From Rhodothermales bacterium (GTDB lineage: Bacteria > Bacteroidota > Rhodothermia > Rhodothermales > JANQRZ01), in NCBI GenBank assembly GCA_038232935.1, contig JBBSMX010000003.1, positions 6,443 to 70,442 of the forward strand: DNA of 64,000 bases, given 5' to 3'. Made by a program: the position numbers and the translations under genes. Of the stretch, positions 18,049-58,873 are shown piece by piece. Each line of letters begins with the position of its first letter. The first letter of the stretch is position 1. The notes below the pieces were generated by a model. It did not search any database. It worked only from the letters and a program-made list of their open reading frames with translations, and was not told the origin of the DNA.

Positions 18049-19830
18049 GTGCCTCTTCCGCCCAACTCCGTCCTGCTCGATACCGTGTGGCCCGACGGCC
18101 TGGATCAGACGGTGGGACCGCGCCTCTTCACCCGGCCCGAGCATGTCCTCACAGCGCACACGCTCGCCGACGTGCTGCCGCTGCTCGCGGAGCTCGACCG
18201 ACTCACAGCCGAGGGTGCGTGGGCGGCTGGCTATCTCGCCTACGAGGCTGGCTACGCGTTCGAGCAGATCGCCCCGCTGACCACGCGGCCGGAGCCGCTC
18301 GCGTGGTTCGGAGTCTACCGCGCTCCCCAGCGACTGACGGGGGACGACGTGGAGGCGCTGCTGGCCGAGGGGGGGAGCTATGCCCTCACCGAGCCGCAGT
18401 TCGCCCTCGACCGGCCAGCGTACCAGGCGCGCATCGCTCGCATCAAACAGTATATCCGGGAAGGCGAGGTCTACCAGATAAACTTCACCGCCCCGTTCCG
18501 CTTCGGGTTCGAGGGCGATCCGGTGGGCTTCTACGCCACGCTCCGGCGAAAGCAGCGCGTCGGCTACGGAGCGCTAATCCGCGCGGGGGACGTGTGGGTG
18601 CTCTCCCGCTCACCGGAGCTGTTTTTCGCACGAGACGGTCGGCGAGTTACGGCGCGGCCGATGAAGGGGACGGTCCGGCGCGGTGCGACGGGGGAGGAGG
18701 ACGCGGCCCAGTCGCGCTGGCTGACGGCGGACGCGAAGAACCGGGCCGAGAACCTGATGATCGTGGACCTCTTGCGCAACGACCTCTCCATCGTGGCCAA
18801 ACCGGGGTCGGTGCAGGTGTCGGCGCTGTTCACGGCCGAGCGCTACGACACACTCTGGCAGATGACCTCGACGGTCGAGGCACTACTGAGACCAGGCGTC
18901 GGGACGGGCGAACTCATCCGCGCACTGTTTCCCTGTGGCTCGGTCACGGGGGCACCGAAGATCCGCGCGATGCAACTCATCGACGGGCTGGAGGACGGGC
19001 CGCGCGATGTCTACTGCGGGGCCATCGGGTTCATCGGTCCGGGCGGGCGCGCCGTGTTCAACGTGCCGATTCGCACCGTCGTCCTGCGCGATGGCGAGGG
19101 GCGTATGGGGAGTGGGAGCGGGGTGGTGTGGGACTCCGACGCCGACGCTGAGTACGACGAGTGCCTGTTGAAAGCCCGCTTCCTCACCGCTCCACCGCCA
19201 CCCGAATTCGCCCTGCTCGAAGCGATCCGGTGGGACGGAGGCTTCGACCTGCTCGATGCTCACCTCGACCGGCTGCGCAGTGCCGCCGCCTATTTCGACT
19301 TCCCCTACGACGAGGCCGCGCTGCGCGACCGGTTGTATGCCGCCGGGGCCGATCTTCAGCAGGGCGAGGCCCACCGAGTTCGGCTTTTGTGGGACCGGCA
19401 CGGCTACCTCGGCATTGACGCCGTGCCTCTCGCCGCGTCACCGTTTCCGCTCCGTCGCGCCGTGATCTATCCCGATCCGGTCGATTCCGCCGACCCCTTC
19501 CTCCGTCACAAAACGACGAACCGGCCCGTGTATGCTCGTGCCTTCGCGTGGGCGCAGCAGCGTGGGTTCGACGAGGCGATCCTGCTGAACGAGCGCGGCG
19601 AAGTGACGGAGGGGACGCGGACGAACGTGTTCGTGCGACGCGGTGACCGCCTGCTCACGCCGCCGCTCGCGTCCGGCGGGCTCGGCGGGGTATACCGGGC
19701 GCACATCCTAGCCACGAAGGCGGGGGCGTACGAGGAAGTGCTGAGCGTGCCGGACCTACTGAGGGCCGACGCCGTTTACCTGTGCAACGCGGTGCGCGGC
19801 CTGAACGAAGTGACCGTAGTCACAGAGTGA
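18049..19830 (+). CDS. pabB: Aminodeoxychorismate synthase component I fused to aminodeoxychorismate lyase (PabB-PabC)
   Basis: 593 aa, GTG start. Chorismate-binding core (EVYQINFT..., PMKGT..R, CGSVTGAPKIRAMQLI, RDVYCGAIG) followed by a class-IV aminotransferase/ADC-lyase-like C-terminus (FLRHKTTNR..., EVTEGTRTNVF). Confidence 0.85.
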   Translation: MPLPPNSVLLDTVWPDGLDQTVGPRLFTRPEHVLTAHTLADVLPLLAELDRLTAEGAWAAGYLAYEAGYAFEQIAPLTTRPEPLAWFGVYRAPQRLTGDDVEALLAEGGSYALTEPQFALDRPAYQARIARIKQYIREGEVYQINFTAPFRFGFEGDPVGFYATLRRKQRVGYGALIRAGDVWVLSRSPELFFARDGRRVTARPMKGTVRRGATGEEDAAQSRWLTADAKNRAENLMIVDLLRNDLSIVAKPGSVQVSALFTAERYDTLWQMTSTVEALLRPGVGTGELIRALFPCGSVTGAPKIRAMQLIDGLEDGPRDVYCGAIGFIGPGGRAVFNVPIRTVVLRDGEGRMGSGSGVVWDSDADAEYDECLLKARFLTAPPPPEFALLEAIRWDGGFDLLDAHLDRLRSAAAYFDFPYDEAALRDRLYAAGADLQQGEAHRVRLLWDRHGYLGIDAVPLAASPFPLRRAVIYPDPVDSADPFLRHKTTNRPVYARAFAWAQQRGFDEAILLNERGEVTEGTRTNVFVRRGDRLLTPPLASGGLGGVYRAHILATKAGAYEEVLSVPDLLRADAVYLCNAVRGLNEVTVVTE

Positions 19831-45337: not shown

Positions 45338-46507
45338 TTATTCGGAAGGCGGAGGATCGGAGCCGGCGACGACTTCGGCTCCGTTCGTGCCCGAGGTGCG
45401 GAAGGTGTACGCGATGGCTTCCATCTGGCGGAGGAACTCGCGCTTCTCGGCACTGGTGTAGCGTGGGGCGTAGATCATCCCGTCGATGAGGTAAAAGCGG
45501 CCGGTGTCCTCGTCGAAAAAGGCGTAGCTCACGAACGGGCCGCCCATGAAATCGCCGGTCATCCGCCACGTCCCGCGCGTCTCGATCGCGAAGCGCCCGG
45601 CGAGGTTGACGGTGTCCGTCTCTATGGGCCGCCGCACGAGGTCCCGGTCCTCGATGGCGATGTAGCTCTCGGGGAAGCTCCCGCGCACGAACCGCTCGGT
45701 GAGCCGGTTGCGGAGGGCGCGGACGGAGTCGGGCTGGAGCCGCTCCAGGCGGGGGTCCTCCTCGAAGTAGACGAACATGTCGCGCCACGAGTCCTGCCCG
45801 GCCAGCCGGCGGAGGCGGACGAACGTGCCGCGCTCGCCGCTGGCGGTGAGGAACGTGGTGTCCTGCGCGAGGACGTAGTCGTGCTGGACGTTGACGGCGA
45901 ACCCGTACTCATCCAAGAGCCGCTGCTCAGCCCCGACCCGCTCGCCCTTCTCGAACATGTCTTCGGTGAGGCGTCGCCGCGCGAGGCGGTCGAACGAGGC
46001 GCGGAGTTCGTCGCCTCCCGCACGGATCTGCTGCGCGAGTGCGCTGTCACTCGGGGCGGTGGCGTAGACAATGAGTTGGTCGCGCATCCAGAGGTCGTCT
46101 CGCTCGATGAGGCCGCGCCCGCCACGTTCGAGCGCGGCGACGCCCGCCGAGTCCAGCCGGGCGCGGATGAACCGGGCCGTCGCCGTAGTGTCCGTGAACG
46201 GCGCGGCGAAGACGACGCTGTGCTGGCGGCGGATGCCGTCGAGGGCGTAGTCGCTCAGCGACTGCCGCGTGAGGGTGAAGGCGGGGGTCGGCTGCGGTAG
46301 GGTGAGGGCCTCGCGGCCGAGCGTCGCACGGAGGGCCTCGCCGACCGGCCCGTTCCACGTCGCCGAGTCCGTGACGACCACCACCTCACCCGTCTTGCCG
46401 ACGGCGAGCGGCTTGTAGTTGGAGAGTTCGTTACACCCGGCGAGCAGGAGCACCACGAGGGCAGCCGGGGCGAGAAGAACGGCGAGAAGGGAGCGTCGTC
46501 GGTTCAT
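45338..46507 (-). CDS. DUF4837-like lipoprotein
   Basis: [25 protein letters not shown] lipobox; 389 aa. The start overlaps the trpA stop (ATGA). Confidence 0.7.
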
Positions 46508-47331
46508 GCGTGGGGGACGGTCGGTCCGAATTTTAGTTCGTGCGCGAAGGCGCGGACGCGCTCCAGCCGCTCCGGCTCGGTCAGCGCCGGGTCGTTCCAG
46601 AGCGCTTCGACCGTGCGGATGAGCGCGCTGCCGACGATGAAGCCGTCGGTGTGCGCGCTGAGGCGGAGGGCGTCCGCGTGCGTCCTAATGCCAAACCCGA
46701 CGAGGAGCGGATTGTTGTGGACGAAGCGGCAGGTGCGGGCCAAATACGCGGAGATTCCATCTAAAGCGCTGATGTTGCTTCCCGTAAGCCCCGTTGTCGA
46801 GACGGCGTAGACGAACGCCGAGGCGCGCTCGTCCACGAGCCGCACACGCGCTTCCGAAGTGTTGGGGGCGACGAGAAACACGAGACCGAGTCCGGCTTCG
46901 GTTGCCGCGTCTTGGATGAGATCGGCCTCTTCGGGGGGGAGATCGGGGAGGATGAGTCCATCCACCCCAGAAGACCACGCGTCGCGGCAGAAGTTGCCCA
47001 CGCCGTAGCGGAGCACCGGGTTGACGTAGCCCATCAGCAGGAGCGGCGTCTCGCTCTCGGCGCGGAACTGCTCTGCCGTGCGGAACGCGTCGGCCATCGT
47101 CACGCCGTGACGGAGGGCGCGCTCGGATGCGTACTGGATCGGGAGCCCTTCGGCGAGCGGGTCGGAGAACGGCATCCCGAGCTCGATGAAGTCGGCCCCG
47201 GCCTCGTCCACGGCGCGGAGGATGGGGAGCGTGGCGTCCGGGTGCGGGAAGCCGTTTGTGAGGAACAGGCCCATCGCCATCTCGCCTCGGGCGCGGCACG
47301 CGTCGAGGGCAATGCGGAGTCGGTCGGTCAT
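46504..47331 (-). CDS. trpA: Tryptophan synthase alpha chain
   Basis: [40 protein letters not shown]..., LLMGYVNP, and GFGI near the C-terminus. ATG 47331. Confidence 0.95.
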
Positions 47332-47770
47332 CGCTGGTAGAGAGTCGGACGGTCGATGACCATGAAGCGTTCGGGGAACGGTGCGCGAACGAAGCCGACC
47401 TTTTCGTACAGCCCATGCGCGTCCTGCGTGGTGAGCAGAAACCGCCGGAGTCTCTGCAAGTCGGGGTGTTCGAGGACGCATGCCATCAGCCACACGCCGA
47501 GGCCGTGTCCTCGGTAGGCTTCCAGCACGTACACGTCGCAGAGGTACGCGAACGTCGCCCGGTCGGTGATGACGCGGGCGAAGCCGATCTGCTCGGTCTC
47601 GGCATACAGCCCGAAGCAGAGCGAGCCCCGGATCGAGCGCTCGACCGTCTCGAACGGAATCCCCTTCGCCCAGTACGAGCGCGTGAGATAGGCGTGGATT
47701 GCCCCGGGGTCGAGCCGAGCCGGATCGCCGGAGATGGTGAAGCCGCCGCGGGTACGGGTGAAGAAGTCCG

Positions 47771-47774
<4 letters not shown>
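47328..47774 (-). CDS. GNAT family N-acetyltransferase
   Basis: 148 aa. [17 protein letters not shown]...HGLYEKVGF is the acetyl-CoA-binding motif A/B. GTG start overlaps the trpB stop (GTGA); the stop overlaps the trpA start (ATGA). Confidence 0.85.
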
Positions 47775-48978
<1,204 letters not shown>

Positions 48979-48979
<1 letters not shown>

Positions 48980-49623
48980 CACTCGGCCTCCACGGCGTTG
49001 CGGTACGCTTCGAAGAAGTCGTAGAGCTTGTCGAAGTCCTTCACGCCGGGCTCGGACTCGACCGACGACGAGAGGTCCACGGCGTAGGGCCGCATCGTGT
49101 CGATGGCTTCCTGCACGTTCCCCGCGTCGATGCCGCCGGCGAGGAAGAGGGGGAACTCCCCGGCGAGGTCGCGCGCGAGCCGCCAGTTGAAGCTCTCGCC
49201 GGTCCCGCCCCACAGGCTCGTCTTGTGCGTGTCGAGCAGGAAGAAGTCGGCGATGTCTTTGTACGGCAGCATGAGCGCGCGGAGTTGTTCGGACGAGGCG
49301 TCGTGCTGGACGCGGAAGGACTTGATTGTTGGCACCTCAATAGCCTCGACGACTTCGGGCGGCTCGTGCCCGTGCAGCTGCGCGAGCGTGAACCCGACCT
49401 CGGCGCACCGCGTGTTGATGGTCGCCGCATCCTCGTTCACGAACACGCCGACCGCCTCGATGCCATCGACCCATCCGATGATCTCTTTCGCCGCTTTCGG
49501 TTCGAGGTAGCGCGGGCTGTCGGGGTACTGGATGAAGCCGAGGTAGTCCGCGCCGGCGCCGGCGCAGTAGCGGGCGTCGGCGAGGCGGGTGATGCCGCAG
49601 ATTTTGACTTTCGTGGGGGGCAT
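48979..49623 (-). CDS. trpF: Phosphoribosylanthranilate isomerase
   Basis: [26 protein letters not shown]..., LAGGI. The stop overlaps the trpB ATG by 1 nt (TGATG). Confidence 0.9.
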
Positions 49624-49626
49624 GCG

Positions 49627-50445
49627 TCAGCTGGCGAGGCGGAGCGAAGAGGAGAGCAGGGCGGCGGTCTCGCGCCGAAGCTGGCGGAGGGCGTCGCCAG
49701 GGTGACGCGCCCGCATAAACGTCTCGCCGATGAGGACGGCGTCGATCCCCTGACGGTAGAGCATGGCGAGGTCGGTGGCATTGCGCAGGCCGCTTTCGGC
49801 TACCCGGACGATTCGTTCTGGTACATCGGCAAGCACGCGTGGGGCGCGCTCCACGTCCACCTCGAACGTCTTCAAGTCGCGGTTGTTGACGCCGAGGATG
49901 TTCACCCGGTCGAGGTCCACGGTTGCCAGTTCGGACTCGTCGTGAAGTTCCACGAGGCACTCCATCCCGAGGTCGGTCGCCGCGTCGTGGAGGTCGCAGA
50001 GCTGCACGGGGTCGAGTGCGGCGGCGATGAGGAGGACGGCGTCCGCGCCGTACGCCCGCGCTTCGACGAGCTGATACGGGTCGACGATGAAGTCCTTCCG
50101 CAGCAGCGGCAGATCGGTCCCGAGACGGACTTTCGCGAGGGTGTCGAGCGATCCCTGGAAGTGGGTCGGCTCGGTGAGGACGGAGACGGCGGCGGCACCG
50201 GCCTGCTTGTAGGCCCGCGCCGTATCGACGGGGTGAAAGTCGGACGCGATGACGCCCTGCGACGGCGACGCCTTTTTGATCTCGGCGATCACGGCGAGTT
50301 CGCCGTCGCGGCGGAGCGCGCAGGCGAGCGAGAGCGTCGGGGCGCGGAACGCCGGGCGCGCTTCGAGCGCGGCGAGGGGGACCTCCGATTTTCGGCGGAG
50401 GACGAGGGCGCGGGTGTCGGTGAGAATCTGGTCGAGGATAGTCAT
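49627..50445 (-). CDS. trpC: Indole-3-glycerol phosphate synthase
   Basis: VIAEIKKASPSQG, LRKDFIVDPYQL, VNNRDLKTFEVD, ESG. Confidence 0.95.
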   Translation of the reverse strand: MTILDQILTDTRALVLRRKSEVPLAALEARPAFRAPTLSLACALRRDGELAVIAEIKKASPSQGVIASDFHPVDTARAYKQAGAAAVSVLTEPTHFQGSLDTLAKVRLGTDLPLLRKDFIVDPYQLVEARAYGADAVLLIAAALDPVQLCDLHDAATDLGMECLVELHDESELATVDLDRVNILGVNNRDLKTFEVDVERAPRVLADVPERIVRVAESGLRNATDLAMLYRQGIDAVLIGETFMRARHPGDALRQLRRETAALLSSSLRLAS

Positions 50446-50460
50446 GGCTGGAGCAGCATA

Positions 50461-50535
50461 AGCGAGCGGAGGGAAGGAGCGGACGGGTCAGGCGGGGCGC
50501 CCGTGGCGCCATCGCCCGCTCGTAAATCGCTCGCT
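50461..50535. repeat. Word-repeat hairpin in the trpD-trpC spacer
   Basis: agcgagcgg...gagcggacggg / cccgctcg...cgctcgct, with a central GGCGCC-containing palindrome. The 115-nt spacer is the only large gap inside the trp operon. Confidence 0.5.
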
Positions 50536-50560
50536 GTGAATCTGCTCTCGGGACATGGGA

Positions 50561-51604
50561 TCAGGCCGCAGTCGCGGCGTACGCGTTGGAGGCGTCGACG
50601 AGGGCGTCGAGCTTGGCGAGGGCCGCACCGGAGTCGATGCTTTGGCGGGCGGCGTCGAGGCAGGCGCCGAGCCAGCCGTGCTGGCCGCTGGCGAGGAGGG
50701 CGTAGGCCGCGTTCAGAAGCACGATGTCGCGCTGCGGCCCGGCTTCACCCTTTAGAATGAGGCGGACGATCTCGGCGTTCTCTTGCGCCGTCCCGCCCGA
50801 CAGTTCGGAGGCACGGACGCGGCTGAGCCCGTAGTGCTCCGGCGTGACGACCTGCTGCATGAGCGTCTGCGCGCCGAACGGGTCGAGCTCGCTGCCCGTC
50901 TGGTAGACCGTCGTCGGGCTCGTCGTGCTGAGTTCGTCGAGCCCGTCGTGGGCGTAGATGCAGACGACGTGCTCACTCCCGAGGCGGACGAGGATCTGCG
51001 CCATCAGCTTGGCCGTGGCATCGCTGAAGGCGCCGACGAGCTGGCGCTTCACGCCGGCCGGGTTGCAGAGCGGGCCGAGGATGTTGAAGAACGTCCGCAC
51101 GCCGAGCGTCCGCCGGATCGGCATGACGTGTTTGAGCGCCGGGTGGTAGAGCGGGGCGAAGAGAAACGCGATCCCCGCCTCGCGCAGGCACGCCTCCACG
51201 CCCTCCTTCCCGAGCGACGTGTCCACGCCGAGCGCGGCGAGCACGTCCGCCGAGCCCGCGTTCGACGAGACGGCGCGGTTGCCGTGCTTGGCGACGATGA
51301 CGCCCGCGCCCGCCGCGACGAACGAGGCAGCCGTCGAGATGTTGAACGAGCCGGCGTGGTCGCCGCCCGTCCCGCACAGGTCGATGGCGCCCTCCGGCGC
51401 TTCGACCGAAACGGCGTACTCCCGCATGACGCGCGTGAAGCCGGTCAGCTCGTCGAGCGTCTCGCCCCGGCTGCGGAGGCCGAGCAGGAGCGCGGCGATC
51501 TCCTCGGAGGAGACCTCGCCCTTCAGCAGCAGGTGCATCACGGCCTCGGCCTGCGGCTGGGTGAGGGTGTCGCCTTCGGCGATGATCTGGAGGTACTCGC
51601 GCAA
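50561..51604 (-). CDS. trpD: Anthranilate phosphoribosyltransferase
   Basis: DLCGTGGDHAGSFNISTAASFVAAGAGVIVAKHGNRAVSS, FNILGPLCNP. Start TTG 51604 (MREYLQII...) inferred; no ATG is available after the trpG stop. Confidence 0.88.
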   Translation of the reverse strand: MREYLQIIAEGDTLTQPQAEAVMHLLLKGEVSSEEIAALLLGLRSRGETLDELTGFTRVMREYAVSVEAPEGAIDLCGTGGDHAGSFNISTAASFVAAGAGVIVAKHGNRAVSSNAGSADVLAALGVDTSLGKEGVEACLREAGIAFLFAPLYHPALKHVMPIRRTLGVRTFFNILGPLCNPAGVKRQLVGAFSDATAKLMAQILVRLGSEHVVCIYAHDGLDELSTTSPTTVYQTGSELDPFGAQTLMQQVVTPEHYGLSRVRASELSGGTAQENAEIVRLILKGEAGPQRDIVLLNAAYALLASGQHGWLGACLDAARQSIDSGAALAKLDALVDASNAYAATAA

Positions 51605-51627
51605 AACAGGGAGGGCTGGAGGAAGAG

Positions 51628-52215
51628 TTAAGAGATGGGAGCGAAGGCGTCGACGCGTTGGAGCCAGTTGGCGATGAGTTTCGGCCCCTCGACGGTCAGC
51701 ACGCTTTCCGGGTGAAACTGGATGCCCTCGATGGGGAGGTCGCGGTGGCGGAGGCCCATGATGACGCCGTCGTTGGTCTCGGCTGAGACCTCGAGTTCGT
51801 CGGGCAGCGTCTCGCGCTCGACGGCGAGCGAGTGGTAGCGCGTGGCGATGAAGTCTTGCGACATACCCTCGAAGACCGTCTGCCCGTCGTGATGGATGGG
51901 ACTCGTCTTTCCGTGCATCAGCGTCGGCGCGTGGACGACACGCCCGCCGAAGACCTCGCCGATGGCCTGGTGCCCGAGGCACACGCCGAGGATGGGCGTC
52001 GTCTCGCCGAACGTGCGGATCAAGTCCTCAGAGATCCCGGCGTCGGCGGGTCGGCCGGGGCCGGGCGAGATGAGGACCGCGCGCGGGGCGAGTTCGCGCA
52101 CCTCGTCTACGGTCATCACGTCATTGCGGACGACGCGGTATTCGTCCGTGTGCGCGCCCACGAGGTGGACGAGGTTGTACGTGAACGAGTCGTAGTTGTC
52201 GACGATGAGGATCAT
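51628..52215 (-). CDS. trpG: Anthranilate synthase component II (glutamine amidotransferase)
   Basis: MILIVDNYDSFTYNLV, ISPGPG, GVCLGHQ, QFHPES. ATG 52215. Confidence 0.92.
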   Translation of the reverse strand: MILIVDNYDSFTYNLVHLVGAHTDEYRVVRNDVMTVDEVRELAPRAVLISPGPGRPADAGISEDLIRTFGETTPILGVCLGHQAIGEVFGGRVVHAPTLMHGKTSPIHHDGQTVFEGMSQDFIATRYHSLAVERETLPDELEVSAETNDGVIMGLRHRDLPIEGIQFHPESVLTVEGPKLIANWLQRVDAFAPIS

Positions 52216-52216
52216 G

Positions 52217-53539
52217 CTAGCGCTTGTCCATTTCTTTGTTGGGGCGCTGTGCATCTGCCGTACGTAACGAAGTGCTGCGGGCACTAGTCTTCTTGGCTAA
52301 CCGAGCCTTCAGTTTTTGATTCTCGACGTTCTGCTTCTGGATCATAACGTTCTGCTTCTTGATCACGCGCAGTAAAGCGTCTCGATTCATCTGTTGTGCG
52401 GCTTCTTCTTCCTCATACCGATCTGCAATCTGCTGAGCCTTCTCGAGACCGGCCAACCTCTTTTGCATTTGAGCTTTGAGTAGATCTAGTTCGAGGAGAT
52501 CCTTCTCAAGCTTGCGCTCTAACTCAATACCTGGATAAAACTCTTTGCGTAGTCCCACGTGCTCGCGGACGCGCTCCATGATCGGGGCGGCGGCTTCGTG
52601 GGCTTTGCGGGCGCCGTCGCGGAGTACGTCGCGGACGTAGTCGGGCCGCTCGGCGAGTTCTTTCCGGCGCTCGCGGGCTTCGGCAAACTCGTCGGTGATG
52701 AGGCCGAGTAGCTCTTTTTTGGCGTGGCCGTAGCCATAGCCGCCGGCGCGGTACGCCGCCGCGATTTCCTCGCGCTTCGCGTCGTCGGCGAACAGCTTGA
52801 TGAGGGCGAACACGTTGTCGCGCTCCGGGTCCTTCGGCTCTTCGAGCGGCGTCGAATCGGTGACGATGGACATCACCTTCTTCTTCAGCTCCTTGCCCTC
52901 GTCGAAGATGCCGATCGTGTTGCCGTACGACTTCGACATCTTCCGCCCGTCGAGGCCCGGCACGACGGCGACGTCCTCCAGGATCAGCGGTTCGGGGACC
53001 GGGAAGAGCGGCGCGTCCTCGGGGCAGAAGGTGGCGTTGAACTTCTGCGCGAGGTCGCGGCTGATCTCGATGTTCTGCTTCTGATCGGCCCCGACCGGCA
53101 CGAGGGTCCCGCCGTAGATCAGGATGTCGGCCGCCTGCAGGACAGGGTACGTGAAGAGCCCGCCGTTGGCCGTGACCCCCTGCGCGACTTTCTCCTTGTA
53201 CGCCACGCCCTTTTCGATCTGGCTCACGGGCGTCAGGCAGAGGAAGATCCACGCGAGCTCGGTCACCTGCGGCACGTCGCTCTGGAGGAAGAGCGCGGCC
53301 TCGTCGGGGTCGAACCCGAGCGCGAGGTAGTCGAGCGCGACGTCGCGGCTGTACTGCTCCAGCGCCTCGCGGTCCCGCAGCGACGTGAGGGCGTGGTAGT
53401 TGACGATGAAGTAGTACGCCTCGTGCTGCTTGTGCAGCGCGATGTGCTGGCGGAGCGCGCCGAAGTAGTTGCCGAGGTGGAGCGTCCCCGACGGCTGGAT
53501 GCCGGAGACGACCACGTCGGTGGGGGAGGGCGCGGACAT
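52217..53539 (-). CDS. trpS: Tryptophan--tRNA ligase with ~108-aa low-GC coiled-coil C-terminal extension
   Basis: GIQPSGTLHLGNYFGA (HIGH-type) and GRKMSKSYGN (KMSKS). The core ends near ...VREHVGL (~52545). Positions 52217-52545 encode KLEKDLLELDLLKAQMQKRLAGLEKAQQ...KKQNVMIQKQNVENQKLKARL at visibly lower GC. Confidence 0.9.
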   Translation of the reverse strand: MSAPSPTDVVVSGIQPSGTLHLGNYFGALRQHIALHKQHEAYYFIVNYHALTSLRDREALEQYSRDVALDYLALGFDPDEAALFLQSDVPQVTELAWIFLCLTPVSQIEKGVAYKEKVAQGVTANGGLFTYPVLQAADILIYGGTLVPVGADQKQNIEISRDLAQKFNATFCPEDAPLFPVPEPLILEDVAVVPGLDGRKMSKSYGNTIGIFDEGKELKKKVMSIVTDSTPLEEPKDPERDNVFALIKLFADDAKREEIAAAYRAGGYGYGHAKKELLGLITDEFAEARERRKELAERPDYVRDVLRDGARKAHEAAAPIMERVREHVGLRKEFYPGIELERKLEKDLLELDLLKAQMQKRLAGLEKAQQIADRYEEEEAAQQMNRDALLRVIKKQNVMIQKQNVENQKLKARLAKKTSARSTSLRTADAQRPNKEMDKR

Positions 53540-54120
53540 CAGCGGGGCTCCGTGTGGATGGCGGGCTGCTCCATCGCGCCGGCGTGGTGCTCGTCGGGAT
53601 GGATGTGCACGGGCGTCGCGGTGGTCTCGTCGACGGGCACGGGTCGGGCGGGCCGGCGCATCCGGGTCACGATCGGGTGGAGCACGTTGATGCGGGCGTC
53701 GCTGCCGGTGACGTTGTTTTCCAGAATCGCCGTCGTGCGAAGCTGCTGGTGCGCCATGCCGAGCGTGTCGTTGAGCGCGTCGCGGTAGGCCCGCTCGGCG
53801 TCGTCGAGGGCGTACATGATCTCGGCATCGGTGTCACCGAGGTGGACATCGGGGTCGAGGTCCGTGCCGTTGGGCGGGTCGCCGGCGAGCGAGAACACGG
53901 TCTCCTTCAGCTTCGCAAGCTCGGTCCGCGCCCGGTTCATGCCGTCGTTGAGCTGCGCGGCGAGGTCGCGGTCGCCGAGGTCACGGATGGCGGCATCGTA
54001 GGCGTGGAGGAGGGCGTGGTGTCGCCGGATGAGCGGGTTGAGCGCGTCAACGCTCTCGGCGCGCGTCATCGAGCGGCCGGCGCCGCCCCGGTTCATGACG
54101 GACTGGATGAGGGGATACAT
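53539..54120 (-). CDS. Hypothetical helical protein (193 aa) between trpE and trpS
   Basis: ATG 54120 (MYPLIQSVMNRG...). The stop overlaps the trpS ATG by 1 nt (TGATG). Helical repeats are vaguely reminiscent of four-helix-bundle (DUF2383-like) proteins. His/Pro-rich tail. Confidence 0.55.
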   Translation of the reverse strand: MYPLIQSVMNRGGAGRSMTRAESVDALNPLIRRHHALLHAYDAAIRDLGDRDLAAQLNDGMNRARTELAKLKETVFSLAGDPPNGTDLDPDVHLGDTDAEIMYALDDAERAYRDALNDTLGMAHQQLRTTAILENNVTGSDARINVLHPIVTRMRRPARPVPVDETTATPVHIHPDEHHAGAMEQPAIHTEPR

Positions 54121-54146
54121 GGCGTGTGGGGGAGGGTGGAGGAGGA

Positions 54147-55673
54147 TTAGAGGAGCCCGTCGGCGGCGACGCGCATGGCGTCGAGGAGGGCGCGGGCTTT
54201 GGTGCGGGTTTCTTCGTATTCGAGGCCGGGGTCGCTGTCGGCGACGATACCGGCCCCGGCCTGGATGAACGCGGTCTCGCCACGGATCAGCATCGTGCGA
54301 ATCGCGATGCACGTGTCCATGTTTCCTGAGAAATCGGCGTAGCCGACGGCCCCGGCGTAGACGCCGCGCTTGACGGGCTCTAGCTCGTCGATCAGTTCCA
54401 TCGCGCGGACCTTCGGCGCGCCGGAGACGGTGCCGGCCGGGAAGCACGCCGCGAGCACGTCCATCGCCCGCTGCCCGTCGGCGACCTCGCCGGAGACGGA
54501 CGAGACGAGGTGCATCACGCGGGCGTAGCGCTCGACCGTCGCGTAGCGCTCCACCTCGACCGTGCCCACGCGGCAGGCGCGCCCGAGGTCGTTCCGCCCG
54601 AGGTCCACGAGCATCAAGTGCTCGGCCCGCTCCTTCGGGTCGGTGACGAGCTCCCGTTCGAGCGCGGCGTCTTCCTCGGGCGTTTCGCCGCGCCGCCGCG
54701 TCCCGGCGATGGGCAGCACCTCGGCCCGCCGGGTGCCGCCCGCCGTGCCTTCGACGCGGACGAGCACTTCGGGCGACGAGCCCGCGAGCTGGAAGCCGTC
54801 GAAATCGAGGAAGAAGAGGTACGGCGAGGGGTTCACCTGTCGGAGCGCGCGGTAGAGGTTGAACGGGTCGCCCTCGAACGGGAGCGCGAACCGCTGCGAG
54901 AGGACGACCTGGAAGATGTCGCCCTCGACGATGTGCGTCTTCGCTCGTCGCACCGACGCTTCGAAGTCCTCGCGTGTGACATTCGACTGCGGATCGCGGT
55001 CGCGGAGGGTGACGGGCTCGGGGAGGGTGATCGGTCCCGTCGTCAGCTCGGCTTCCAGCACGTCGAGCCGGGTGCGGGCGTCGTCCCACGCCGCATGGAG
55101 GTCGGTAGCGTCGTCCACGAACACGGTCGCCATCAGCACGAGCCGGCGGGCGACGTGGTCGAAGGCGGCGACGGTGTCGTAGAACGCCCACAGCGCGTCG
55201 GGCAGGCTGAGGTCGTCGGGTGGCGGGTCGGGGAGGCGTTCGAGCAGGCGCACGGCGTCGTAGCCCATGAACCCGACGGCCCCGCCGGTGAAGCGCGGCA
55301 GCTCGGGCAGCACGATCTCTTCGTAGGCATCGAGCAACTGCGCCATCACCTCGAACACGGTGCCCGCGGCGGTCTGCGGCGGGGCGCCATCACCCATCGC
55401 CAAGTCGCCGCCGTGTCGCACCCACACGTTCTCGCCGCACGCCTCGACGATCCGGTACGGTCGCGTACCGAGGAACGAGTACCGCCCGAGCCGCTCGCCG
55501 CCTTCGACGCTTTCGAGCAGGAAGCTGAATCGGCCCGGCTCGCGGAGGGCGAGGAAAGCCGCGACCGGCGTCAGCAGGTCGGCGCTGCGTCGGCGGTAGA
55601 CGGGGACAGCCAGCCGCCGCGCGCCGGCACGGCGTCGGTCCTCGACGAGGGAGTGGAAGGTCGGAAAGTCCAT
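54147..55673 (-). CDS. trpE: Anthranilate synthase component I
   Basis: LLTPVAAFLAL, FLLESVEGGERLGRYSFLG, GAPKVRAMELIDELE, RGVYAGAVGY. ATG 55673 (MDFPTF). Confidence 0.95.
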   Translation of the reverse strand: MDFPTFHSLVEDRRRAGARRLAVPVYRRRSADLLTPVAAFLALREPGRFSFLLESVEGGERLGRYSFLGTRPYRIVEACGENVWVRHGGDLAMGDGAPPQTAAGTVFEVMAQLLDAYEEIVLPELPRFTGGAVGFMGYDAVRLLERLPDPPPDDLSLPDALWAFYDTVAAFDHVARRLVLMATVFVDDATDLHAAWDDARTRLDVLEAELTTGPITLPEPVTLRDRDPQSNVTREDFEASVRRAKTHIVEGDIFQVVLSQRFALPFEGDPFNLYRALRQVNPSPYLFFLDFDGFQLAGSSPEVLVRVEGTAGGTRRAEVLPIAGTRRRGETPEEDAALERELVTDPKERAEHLMLVDLGRNDLGRACRVGTVEVERYATVERYARVMHLVSSVSGEVADGQRAMDVLAACFPAGTVSGAPKVRAMELIDELEPVKRGVYAGAVGYADFSGNMDTCIAIRTMLIRGETAFIQAGAGIVADSDPGLEYEETRTKARALLDAMRVAADGLL

Positions 55674-55706
55674 AAAAAAAGCCCGCTGCTCGGGAGAACA
55701 GCGGGC
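55674..55706 (-). terminator. Attenuator terminator (segments 3:4) abutting the trpE start codon
   Basis: Minus strand: gcccgctgttc-tccc-gagcagcgggc (11-bp stem incl. one G-U, 55706-55681), then UUUUUUU (55680-55674), then ATG (55673). Confidence 0.85.
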
Positions 55707-55729
55707 GGCGACATCGTCGTGCTCGAAGG

Positions 55730-55861
55730 TTACGCGACGGCGCACGAGCAGCCCACTGTTCGGGGGGAGGTCCACCAGAACCAGACAGCGTGGGCGGTAT
55801 GGGCGTGCGCGTGCGTCACAGCCCCCATGATACGCAGAAGGTCTCTCCGGCGCAACCGCAT
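55730..55861 (-). CDS. trpL: Trp operon leader peptide (43 aa; or 32 aa from internal ATG 55828)
   Basis: Own translation of the minus strand: MRLRRRDLLRIMGAVTHAHAHTAHAVWFWWTSPRTVGCSCAVA*. Trp codons at 55783-55781, 55777-55775 and 55774-55772. Too short for the ORF track. Confidence 0.7.
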   Translation of the reverse strand: MRLRRRDLLRIMGAVTHAHAHTAHAVWFWWTSPRTVGCSCAVA

Positions 55862-55916
55862 CTTTTCGGGAGCGGCTTCGAAAGAGGGGGCACCGAATCA
55901 CCCTATCTCATCCTCG

Positions 55917-57176
55917 ATGAACCGCCTGCTCCACGCCGGCCTGCTGCTCCTGCTCGCCGCTCCCGCCTTCGCTCAAACGTCCGACGGCTACGTCCGCATC
56001 CCGTTTAATGTCTCGATCTGGCGCGGCATCAGCATCGGCGATGCCGTGGCGGGGGACACGAGCCGGACCGTGCTGCACCACGTCTCACTGAACCTCCCGT
56101 ACGGCCAGGCGGACCGACTGGAAGGCGTCGCCGTCGGCGTGTTCGCGACGGTGTACGAGGAGTCGGCGTACGGTGTGCAGGTGGCCGGGCTGGCGAACGT
56201 GGTAGGGGAGGAGGCCGAAGCGATTCAACTTGCCGGGCTGGCGAATGTGGTCGGTGAGCGGATGCGCGGCGTGCAGGCGGCGGGGCTCGCGAACGTCATC
56301 GGAGAGGAGGGTGGGTTCGTACAGGTGGCCGGGTTGGCGAACGTCGCCGGGGAGGGGTTCGGCGGGGTGCAATCGGCGGGTCTCACCAACATCGCCGGGG
56401 AAGACTTTCTCGGGGTGCAGGCTTCCGGACTGGCGAACATCGCGGGCGAGCGGACTGCGGGCGGGCAGTTCGCCGGGCTGGCGAACATCGCCGGGGAAGC
56501 GATGGTCGGGATCCAATCGGCGGGGCTAGCCAACATCACGGGAGAAGACCTGGTGGGTCTGCAAAGCGCGCCGTTCAACATCGTCGGCGGCACGCTGCGC
56601 GGCGTGCAGGCGGGCGTCATCAACGTGGCGGACGAGTCGGCGGGGCTGCAACTGGGTATCGTGAACGTGGCCGGTGAGCAGCGGGGAATTCCCGTTGGGC
56701 TGTACTCGCGGACGGGCGGCGTGCCGGTGCGGCTGGACGTGTGGACAGACGAGACGGCGGCGCTCCACGTCGGTGTCCGGTCCGGGAGCGTGACGGTCTC
56801 TAACTACGCAGGCATCAGCACGCGGCCCTTCGCCGACGCGGCGTTGCGGTGGGGTGTGTTCGCCGGACTGGGCGTAGAGGGCACGCTCGTGCCGCGCGTG
56901 GCGTGGGGCCTGGACGCCTTCGTCCACGGGCTGTTCGCCGAGGACTTTGGAGAGTACGGGGGCACGCTCGTCCGCCTCCGCTTCATCGCGACGCGCGTCG
57001 TCAGTCGGCGGGCCGCCGTCTTCGCCGGTCCCGCCGTGAGCCTGTTCGTCTCCGACGAGAACGATGGCGGCGATCTCGCCCCGTTCTCGCTCTACGAAGA
57101 CGCCATGGACGACGGCTTCGTCCGCATCTGGCCCGGCCTCGAAGCCGGCCTCCGCATCCGCATCACCGACGATTGA
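55917..57176 (+). CDS. Secreted repeat protein (16-aa AGLANxxGExxxGxQ repeats + C-terminal beta-rich domain)
   Basis: MNRLLHAGLLLLLAAPAFAQ signal. Eight near-identical 16-aa repeats (VAGLANVVGEEAEAIQ / LAGLANVVGERMRGVQ ...) plus about 3 degenerate ones. ATG 55917 within the long ORF 54510-57176. Confidence 0.8.
   Translation: MNRLLHAGLLLLLAAPAFAQTSDGYVRIPFNVSIWRGISIGDAVAGDTSRTVLHHVSLNLPYGQADRLEGVAVGVFATVYEESAYGVQVAGLANVVGEEAEAIQLAGLANVVGERMRGVQAAGLANVIGEEGGFVQVAGLANVAGEGFGGVQSAGLTNIAGEDFLGVQASGLANIAGERTAGGQFAGLANIAGEAMVGIQSAGLANITGEDLVGLQSAPFNIVGGTLRGVQAGVINVADESAGLQLGIVNVAGEQRGIPVGLYSRTGGVPVRLDVWTDETAALHVGVRSGSVTVSNYAGISTRPFADAALRWGVFAGLGVEGTLVPRVAWGLDAFVHGLFAEDFGEYGGTLVRLRFIATRVVSRRAAVFAGPAVSLFVSDENDGGDLAPFSLYEDAMDDGFVRIWPGLEAGLRIRITDD
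56181..56564 (+). repeat. Coding tandem repeat, 8 x 48 bp
   Basis: Period derived from the protein repeats. Antisense ORFs over the region also show periodic PGDVRQPG-type translations. Confidence 0.8.
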
Positions 57177-57222
57177 CCAAACCAGTGAAACGGTTTGTGT
57201 TTGTGAACGGACCTTCAGACAA

Positions 57223-57292
57223 GTCATCCCCGCGCAGGCGGGGACCCAGAGTCGAAGCTAGCCGGTGGGTTCCTGCCTTGATCGGGGATGAC
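57223..57292. repeat. 70-bp MITE/REP-like element with perfect 10-bp terminal inverted repeats
   Basis: gtcatccccg (57223-57232) ... cggggatgac (57283-57292). The inner arms caggcggggaccc / gggttcctgcc also pair. Confidence 0.7.
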
Positions 57293-57317
57293 TCTCTTGT
57301 GAAGGATATCCGCATCT

Positions 57318-57815
57318 TTATAGCGTAGTCCACCCCTCTGAGAAAGCTGTTGCCACACCGGGGTTTTGCTCGACAAACGCTCGAAGCGCATCTGAAGCTT
57401 CACCACACTGACACTGGCGCATCGTGCGGAAGTCGTTCGCCAGCGCTTGAGTCGTTCGAATTGGTCCCCATGGAATGGCCCACCATCCGAGCACGGCTGT
57501 CACCAGAGCCGCACGCTTCGCCTGCGCCGCTAGGCAATCCGGGCACGCGATGACGGTGTGCTTGTCGAATGTAGTCAGTATCACGAAGCTCTTCGCATCT
57601 GCGATCACACCGCCGTTGAGTGGATGGTCATTCCTGCCGCACGCCGGACATGGTTGCTTCCGCACGGTTTCTACTAAGAGATCTAAATCGCGCCGTGAGA
57701 GCGAGTGGATTTGCGCCTCTACTGCGCGCCCAACAGCGGAATTGATTCCGCGAGCGGCGAGTTCGCTGTTAAGGACCCTCAGTGCCTCAGGTGTGAGGCC
57801 GGCAGCCTCATGCAA
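57318..57815 (-). CDS. Hypothetical Cys-rich (CPACG...CPDC) protein, possibly 5'-truncated by an in-frame TAA
   Basis: The ORF-track start is TTG 57815. An in-frame upstream segment ...VSEQLAEHYRRMPDERLL is separated only by TAA (57824-57822). Lower-GC region. Confidence 0.4.
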   Translation of the reverse strand: MHEAAGLTPEALRVLNSELAARGINSAVGRAVEAQIHSLSRRDLDLLVETVRKQPCPACGRNDHPLNGGVIADAKSFVILTTFDKHTVIACPDCLAAQAKRAALVTAVLGWWAIPWGPIRTTQALANDFRTMRQCQCGEASDALRAFVEQNPGVATAFSEGWTTL

Positions 57816-57940
57816 CGAAATTTAAAGTAGCCGCTCGTCTGGCATTCTGCGGTAGTGCTCGGCGAGTTGCTCAGACACGGCTACTTGCAGATCAAGACAG
57901 CGGGAAGTGAGGTAGAGCTTGTACTTCTAAGCGCTCGGCC

Positions 57941-58873
57941 TCACGAATCTCCCTTCGCCTCTTCGATGAGGGCTTCGAACGCTTCCAGCGGCTGTGCGCC
58001 GTTGACGAAGCGGCCGTTGACGAAGAAGCCCGGCGTGCCCGTCACGCCCAGCTCTTCGCCGAGTGCCATGTTCGCGTCGAGCGTGGCGACGGCCTCCTGG
58101 TGCGCGTCGGACGAGGCATCCTCGGTGCAGGTCGCCCATGTAGCCACGTCCACGTCGGCCGTGGTGAGGAAGTCGCGGCTCTTTGCGGTGACGTTGCCGG
58201 GGTTGATTTCGCTCTGATTCCTGAAGTAGCCGTCGTGGAGCGTCCAGAACGCGTCGGGGTCCTGCTGCGCGGCACAGAGCGCGGCGATGGAGGCGGGCCG
58301 CGCCCACGGGTGGTTGTTGAGCGGGAACTGCGCGTAGACGAGGCGCACGTCTTCGGGATACTTCGCCAGCACCTGCTCGACCGTCGCGAACGCGCGCGAG
58401 CAGTACGGACACTGGAAGTCGGAGAACTCGACGATCGTGACGGGGGCGTTGGGGTTGCCGCGCACGGGGAGGTCGGCGAGGGCTTCGTTGAGCTGCTCCC
58501 TCCGCTCGCTGACTTCGGCGGCGGCGGCCTGCTCGCGCTCGGCGCGGGCGGCGGCGAGGCCGTCGGCGGAGCGGCTCACGTCCACGGGGTCGGCGGAGAC
58601 CATGAAGAGCTGTGTGTCGTCGTCAGTGACGAGGAAGAGCTGCGTCTGCTGGCCGTTGATGGTGAACGTCCCCTGGCTCAGCCCCTCGATGTCGGTGGGC
58701 TCGATGTCGCCGATCTCGACGCGGTACTGCTCGAGCTGGGGAAACTCGAAGACGAGGTTGGAGAGAATACGGGCCTTGCGTTCGGCGGGCGAGAGGTCGC
58801 TCGCGGTCTGGCCGCATGCCGTGGTGTTGAGGGCGAGCGTGACGAGCGTGAACAGAACGAGCAGACGTTTCAT
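57941..58873 (-). CDS. DsbA-family thiol:disulfide oxidoreductase (lipoprotein/secreted)
   Basis: MKRLLVLFTLVTLALNTTAC, thioredoxin motif FSDFQCPYCSRAF, TPGFFVNG. ATG 58873. Confidence 0.85.
   Translation of the reverse strand: MKRLLVLFTLVTLALNTTACGQTASDLSPAERKARILSNLVFEFPQLEQYRVEIGDIEPTDIEGLSQGTFTINGQQTQLFLVTDDDTQLFMVSADPVDVSRSADGLAAARAEREQAAAAEVSERREQLNEALADLPVRGNPNAPVTIVEFSDFQCPYCSRAFATVEQVLAKYPEDVRLVYAQFPLNNHPWARPASIAALCAAQQDPDAFWTLHDGYFRNQSEINPGNVTAKSRDFLTTADVDVATWATCTEDASSDAHQEAVATLDANMALGEELGVTGTPGFFVNGRFVNGAQPLEAFEALIEEAKGDS

Follow-up and report, generated by a model that had tools for sequence, protein, structure and literature searches.

How does a housekeeping enzyme of otherwise ordinary type come to end in 110 residues that none of the relatives examined carries? 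The question is raised by trpS, the tryptophanyl-tRNA synthetase (TrpRS) gene in the trp operon of a Rhodothermales bacterium (assembly GCA_038232935.1, contig JBBSMX010000003.1), which was analyzed within a window of 64 kb, the whole stretch of DNA considered here. All feature coordinates are positions in this window, and the trp operon lies on its minus strand. The reading that we favor, with a probability of roughly 0.6, is that this is a standard attenuated Rhodothermales trp operon in which, in this genome, the end of trpS has been replaced by recent foreign or orphan DNA that encodes a tolerated passenger tail. Three features of the gene carry the argument.

52550..53539, minus strand: canonical core of trpS, residues 1–330, a bacterial-type TrpRS by Pfam, NCBIfam, and alignment to homologs.
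52217..52549, minus strand: orphan 3' extension of trpS (the tail), of low guanine-cytosine (GC) content; 110 codons and a TAG, replacing the native last 0–13 codons and stop.
52326..52365, minus strand: 21-bp (7-codon) tandem duplication in the tail, encoding IKKQNVM / IQKQNVE; period 21, 1.9 copies, 94% matches.

The trpS open reading frame (ORF) encodes 440 amino acids (aa) at 53539..52217 on the minus strand, and residues 1–330 are, judged by their sequence, an ordinary bacterial class I TrpRS with predicted aminoacylation activity. The Pfam family tRNA-synt_1b (PF00579) matches trpS with an E value of 9e-58. The NCBIfam equivalog TIGR00233 (trpS) reaches 279.8 bits, where the cutoff is 176.75, with residues 9–330 covering profile positions 4–328 of 328. 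The core is therefore like other TrpRS of TIGR00233 and PF00579 in matching end to end, and the protein is unlike the family in its 110 extra C-terminal residues. Both signature motifs named in the original prediction, the HIGH-type TLHLGN (residues 19–24) and KMSKS (residues 200–204), are found in this ORF and fall in invariant alignment columns, and residues 1–330 are 76–86% identical to Rhodothermales TrpRS. The end of the canonical core had been placed near 52545; homology to all relatives stops after ...HVGL, at residue 330 (base 52550). The gene borders are as first described, with the trpS ATG overlapping the upstream stop (TGATG, 53541–53537) and the TAG stop (52219–52217) lying 1 nt from the trpG ATG (TAG-C-ATG, 52219–52213), and the earlier coordinates all check out. 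No second trpS is present within the window.

The composition of the DNA breaks at the end of the core. Tail codons (52549..52220) have a GC content of 49% (0.475–0.50 in 150–200-nt windows), compared to a window mean of 0.671 (standard deviation of 0.042 in 200-nt windows), and the tail is the lowest-GC spot of the 64 kb. GC at third codon positions (GC3) is 0.564 in the tail and 0.936 in the trpS core. Sliding-window GC and GC3 analysis, which the original prediction had proposed, bears out its claim that the tail is AT-richer than its surroundings. The trpS frame has no internal stops across the tail, while each of the other five frames has 4–7. A Poisson estimate from these stop counts gives a chance of ~0.005 for an open frame of 110 codons, so the block behaves like coding sequence and not like spacer. 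Structured RNA was not indicated in the tail, where the predicted fold is no better than shuffles (z = +0.87), and an Rfam search at E ≤ 1 across 47000–58000 returned nothing except a chance small RNA match in the leader.

A direct repeat reported at 52326–52366 was recovered as the tandem duplication at 52326–52365. A minisatellite origin of the tail was considered and rejected, since no 21-nt periodicity extends past this single duplication. The second repeat copy, ATCCAGAAGCAGAACGTCGAG (IQKQNVE, 52343–52323), is nearly the same as a conserved segment of the core, GATCAGAAGCAGAACATCGAG (DQKQNIE, 53083–53065, minus strand). The two agree at 18 of 19 nt within the window (E = 0.018), the agreement with trpS of a related locus (L010) is 20 of 20 nt, and no similarity extends beyond 7 codons. 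This likeness could be due to chance or to microhomology involved in rearrangement.

The tail was found only in this protein. The 119 nearest homologs are 325–360 aa long and 74–86% identical, and they cover only 73–76% of the query. In 81 related loci that were read through to their stop codons, TrpRS ends 0–13 residues past VGL, and alignment to relatives breaks immediately past this point. Searched by itself, the tail matched nothing credible. Neither Pfam nor NCBIfam has a domain on the tail. Back-translated pattern scans with tblastn found no tail in GTDB genomes, JGI metagenomes, or IMG/VR, and blastn and tblastn found none in phage and plasmid collections. Apart from short word matches, neither the rest of the window nor the 83 related loci hold another copy. 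Exact-product look-ups of the 440-aa protein and of both possible TrpG products yielded no second witness for the tail. The sole tail match in a full HMMER search of 1.84 billion representatives (1.6e-4) is a 1251-aa repeat protein, which was rejected because the score arises from additive short matches and the BLASTP E value is 0.13.

Absence from every relative examined upholds the original view of the tail as a recent or foreign 3' module. If orthologs commonly carried the same tail at normal GC, it would instead be an ancestral C-terminal domain of this TrpRS lineage. The tail is missing from all 119 nearest homologs and all 81 loci, its composition is foreign, and no point in support of such a domain was found. 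Within the sampled relatives an ancestral domain is already refuted, and we give it next to no weight.

An artifact would also account for a tail that has been observed once only. The DNA could be a chimeric insertion made in metagenome assembly, or a 1-nt indel could hide the true stop, in which case a TrpRS of ~337–339 aa would be followed by a 300-bp spacer or small gene. The abrupt break in composition would fit either version, as would the long noncoding or gene-bearing spacers that relatives often have between trpS and trpG. The other two forward frames stop 7–9 codons past the core/tail junction, so that one indel near the junction would yield a TrpRS of normal length. Three observations nevertheless make an artifact unlikely. 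The flanks resume exactly as in relatives, at trpS codon 330 and trpG codon 1, so that a chimera would require false joining at two places, each of them exact. An open frame of this length is improbable for noncoding DNA of 49% GC, given the number of stops in the other five frames. Finally, the adjacent core, including its homopolymer runs, is reproduced gap-free in an independent Logan contig (L084; SRR13704952, 1969 bp) that is 99.44% identical to window positions 54615–52647, with 11 mismatches and no gaps. With this contig, both the lineage and the neighboring core sequence are confirmed.

The 3' end of the core has a compositional shift of its own. GC3 drops from about 1.0 to 0.80–0.88 over the last 75 codons of the core (52550–52775, minus strand), nearing the tail. 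The drop is due to A-ending Lys, Glu, and Leu codons, which are reproduced in L084; GC3 remains 1.0 in L001 and L002, the nearest relatives. A mosaic or recombinant 3' end of trpS was considered and rejected because identity to relatives at the nucleotide level changes little from one end of the core to the other, with no clear mosaic.

On the reading that the end of trpS was replaced, ~333 bp of ~49%-GC DNA would have taken the place of the last few trpS codons and the stop, exactly at the trpS|trpG junction and in this genome alone. The inserted piece would have been open in the trpS frame by chance or by selection, and would end 1 nt before the trpG ATG, keeping the close spacing of relatives. 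The encoded product would be a TrpRS followed by a short Pro-Gly hinge, a helix of ~90 residues, and ~15 disordered residues. The most likely source of the insert is part of a coding sequence in a donor of lower GC content, and the unadapted codon usage of the insert (GC3 of 0.56) points to a recent event. The tail is now probably a tolerated passenger and not an evolved functional domain. In relatives the native C-terminus varies and can be dispensed with, and the short distance to trpG has been kept here.

Several points weigh against this account. The tail is documented in a single assembly, and the exact 440-aa protein is known once, as a one-member cluster from one NCBI contig of 73 kb. 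The Logan contig ends 98 nt short of the core/tail junction and so provides no second witness for the junctions. A word-indexed search of 5.8 billion proteins gave no match to the tail, which is a weak negative because the self-match was also missed. No donor was found in the searched collections, and it is from composition and the open frame only that we infer a foreign coding fragment. The tail borders have no target-site duplication or terminal repeats that would mark an insertion mechanism. Neutrality of the tail is assumed, and its basic C-terminal half, attached to an acidic enzyme, could be functional. Should the tail be real and translated, it would represent a clean, datable case of a housekeeping enzyme gaining a terminal segment from DNA that is foreign or orphan. 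Dozens of relatives would show the ancestral state, and the case would be useful for understanding how synthetases first acquire their appended domains. For now, the tail has been observed once, without replication, and any function of it would be hypothetical.

Among 75 relatives with both genes, trpS and trpG overlap as ATGA in 18 and are separated by gaps of 2–30 nt in 21, 43–336 nt in 24, and 417–631 nt in 12. The long gaps, which have a GC content below that of trpS, are occupied by a small gene for a four-helix bundle, on either strand, or by its decayed remains. Three of these junction genes were checked and are PF05635, "23S rRNA-intervening sequence protein" or bAvd-like (E values of 2e-32, 1.5e-14, and 2e-42). 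Together, the variable gaps and the PF05635 genes and remnants indicate a recurrent landing site for foreign DNA, and the junction looks like a recurrent hot spot at which a small, possibly mobile gene inserts. The tail resembles the PF05635/bAvd-like genes in occupying the same junction and in having a lower GC content than its flanks. Unlike these separate genes, it is fused to trpS and has no sequence similarity to them.

Because at least 12 relatives have, at this same junction, PF05635 genes on either strand or decayed remnants of such genes, the tail might be the remnant of a mobile element or of such a gene, read through in the trpS frame. This is improbable in light of the searches. 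A profile built from nine junction-resident PF05635 copies finds nothing at the tail in the six-frame translation of the window (best E value elsewhere, 0.16), and Pfam itself has no match on the tail. A mobile element is likewise not indicated, as the window holds no second copy of the tail, related loci match it by short words at most, and its borders have neither terminal inverted repeats nor a target-site duplication.

Inserts of ~500 bp with PF05635 genes were located at L008:2171-2702, L009:5999-6507, L018:1441-1960, L019:1649-2211, L026:5978-6517, L029:1461-2015, L036:5981-6613, L025:2444-2956, L071:3928-4437, and L082:5972-6493. Remnants of the insert occur in L016, L017, and L030.

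AlphaFold places a short hinge, GLRKEFYPG (328–335), after the last core helix, followed by a single helix (336–426) and a disordered end of ~15 residues. The predicted local distance difference test (pLDDT) score is 73–86 over residues 341–410 of the tail helix; with no depth of alignment for the tail, the prediction in effect uses one sequence. The original prediction had described a heptad-like, coiled-coil tail. The long helix is supported by the model; the heptad order found no statistical support. In a crude test, the best 28-residue window of the tail has hydrophobic residues at 6 of 8 a/d positions, a value equaled by 392 of 2000 composition-preserving shuffles, and a spectral test found no power peak in the tail at a period of 3.5. 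Charge differs between the two halves of the tail: the first is slightly acidic, and the C-terminal half is strongly basic, with 16 Lys and Arg residues versus 5 Asp and Glu. The TrpRS core is acidic (37 versus 50).

These properties could be those of a functional appended domain, in which the helical tail stabilizes or reorganizes the TrpRS dimer as a coiled coil, or the basic half provides nonspecific affinity for tRNA, in the manner of Lys-rich helices appended to eukaryotic synthetases. The long helix is predicted with moderate confidence, a Pro-Gly hinge separates it from the core, and the charge of the C-terminal half is opposite to that of the otherwise acidic enzyme. The frame is also open over 110 codons and closes 1 nt before trpG. 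Such a domain is nonetheless doubtful, as the tail is a singleton with no conservation to assess, has no Pfam or NCBIfam homology and no match to the C-terminal part of NF008923, shows heptad order no better than chance, and has the codon usage of a very recent arrival. A more elaborate version is a snapshot of domain accretion: a TrpRS that has just captured an orphan, basic, helical appendage, which is translated, is already useful through altered tRNA affinity or oligomerization in the acidic enzyme of a halophile, and is kept in frame for translational coupling to trpG. We regard this as quite unlikely.

The long-form TrpRS family NF008923/PRK12284 (431-aa model) also has a C-terminal extension of ~100 residues, and its core matches ours with an E value of 5e-92. 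However, the match covers only model positions 5–333 of 431, its 308.9 bits fall far below the cutoff of 597, and the tail is unrelated to that extension. Eukaryotic aminoacyl-tRNA synthetases have Lys-rich helical appended domains, which the tail resembles as a basic, helical, low-complexity extension on a flexible linker. It differs from them in having no sequence relationship, in being C-terminal and a single bacterial instance, and in that tRNA binding is only hypothetical.

The remainder of the operon is of standard type. Its features, from the leader to the last gene, are listed below in the order of transcription.

55730..55828, minus strand: trp leader peptide ORF, MGAVTHAHAHTAHAVWFWWTSPRTVGCSCAVA and stop; alternative upstream ATG at 55861, three Trp codons at 55783..55772.
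55751..55761, minus strand: antiterminator segment GAACAGUGGGC, able to base-pair with the 5' arm of the terminator in folds constrained by ribosome position.
55674..55706, minus strand: intrinsic terminator GCCCGCTGTTCTCCCGAGCAGCGGGC + TTTTTTT; 11 pairs, 8 of them G-C, ending 1 nt before the trpE ATG.
54147..55673, minus strand: trpE, anthranilate synthase component I (Pfam Chorismate_bind, 1e-93; Anth_synt_I_N, 3e-32).
53539..54120, minus strand: orfX, conserved 193-aa protein whose TGA overlaps the trpS ATG; ferritin-like four-helix bundle (AlphaFold, Foldseek).
51628..52215, minus strand: trpG, glutamine amidotransferase (Pfam GATase, 2.5e-56); ATG 1 nt past the trpS stop.
About 51604..50561, minus strand: trpD, with a probable TTG start.
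50445..49627, minus strand: trpC.
49623..48979, minus strand: trpF.
48979..47771, minus strand: trpB.
47331..46504, minus strand: trpA.

The genes from trpD to trpA (46504..51604) were assigned by translation and synteny with annotated relatives. The operon order is leader, terminator, trpE, orfX, trpS, trpG, trpD, trpC, trpF, trpB, and trpA. The original prediction had placed trpS directly after trpE; instead, orfX lies between the two (54120..53539), and it is the stop of orfX that overlaps the trpS ATG. The same prediction had called for a Trp-codon attenuator ahead of the operon, and by its anatomy the operon is preceded by a classical one, with its function deduced from the parts. The leader ORF has 32 codons and contains WFWW, the terminator has 11 pairs followed by T7, and an alternative antiterminator was found. 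In silico folds with the leader masked to the Trp codons pair GAACAGUGGGC with the 5' arm of the terminator, and folds masked to the leader stop form the terminator. When charged tRNA-Trp is scarce, a ribosome would stall on the WFWW codons, the antiterminator would form, and the biosynthetic genes and TrpRS would be transcribed together. Co-transcription of trpS with the operon is plausible because its start overlaps the upstream stop, its stop abuts trpG, and there is no internal terminator on the coding strand: none other than the leader terminator was found among terminator-like sites across 51500–56200. The Bacteroidetes-type promoter motif TAnnTTTG is absent from the coding strand of the operon.

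Synteny was compared across 83 related loci. The order trpE-orfX-trpS-trpG(-trpD) is present in the three nearest metagenomic contigs (L001–L003) and recurs across the Rhodothermales loci of a GTDB scan. In the Balneolales loci the order is trpE-trpS-trpG-trpD, and orfX is missing. Of the 59 loci for which the region is available, 50 have a leader ORF with WWW or WxWW ahead of trpE. The embedded trpS is not a peculiarity of this genome but is clade-wide in Rhodothermales and Balneolales. The arrangement is ancestral to these two orders, and trpS has been in the trp operon since before they split. A whole lineage that keeps trpS in an attenuated trp operon is the more general point raised by this locus; it is tidy and apparently little described, although not surprising. 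No description of trpS inside a trp operon was found in the literature searched, the coverage of which was incomplete.

Attenuation of synthetase genes through leader peptides is known from other bacteria, with E. coli pheST among the examples. Classical attenuators precede trpS and leuS in Streptomyces and pheST in gamma-proteobacteria (PMC1262725). The trp operon examined here shares with these, and with E. coli trp, an ORF with clustered codons, alternative hairpins, a U-run, and a synthetase gene under the signal. It is unlike the separate attenuated synthetase genes in that trpS is an internal gene of one operon, with the biosynthetic gene trpE ahead of it and trpG behind it. In Bacillus, by an account drawn in part from PMC10327191, trpS is under T-box control and the trp genes are under TRAP/anti-TRAP control. 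As in that logic, TrpRS and Trp biosynthesis would both answer to tRNA-Trp charging; unlike it, the sensor here would be a ribosome stalled on a leader ORF, in place of a riboswitch that binds tRNA or a protein that binds RNA. Across 47000–58000, the Rfam search detected neither a T-box nor any other family. The claim that this route differs from T-box and TRAP control holds for the sensor. It does not hold as a claim of newness, since attenuators of synthetase genes have already been described, which makes the regulatory logic a known kind in a different gene arrangement. With trpS embedded, the supply of synthetase would be tied to the charging of tRNA-Trp through a mechanism of known type.

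The gene between trpE and trpS, orfX, belongs to a family of 150–200 aa in relatives that has no Pfam assignment. Its AlphaFold model (mean pLDDT of 83.8) has four helices over residues 20–153, where pLDDT is about 96, and Foldseek matches the model to Dps/bacterioferritin (E about 1e-4, TM [template modeling] scores of 0.6–0.75). Conserved Glu, His, and Gln residues suggest a possible metal site. In about 55 Rhodothermales loci the gene is located between trpE and trpS, in most cases directly against the start of trpS; Balneolales lack it. Copies include L001:5447-5998, L002:2844-3395, L006:4516-4998, L010:4442-4921, and L033:2875-3345. It adjoins trpS even where trpS is outside the trp operon (L006 and L010) or the operon is split (L033), which hints at a functional link to TrpRS and not to Trp synthesis. 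These patterns hint that orfX may be an undescribed partner of TrpRS.

Two further ORFs in the window relate to the operon by homology or position. A second chorismate-binding enzyme homolog is encoded at 18391–19230 on the plus strand. It is 38% identical to TrpE residues 227–501, and its product is probably an isochorismate or aminodeoxychorismate synthase. A large ORF at 55911–57176, also on the plus strand, is divergent and upstream of the trp leader. It has a signal-peptide-like start, MNRLLHAGLLLLLAAPAFA, and carries many repeats of the type GLANV(A/V/I)GE...GVQ(A/S)AGLANI.

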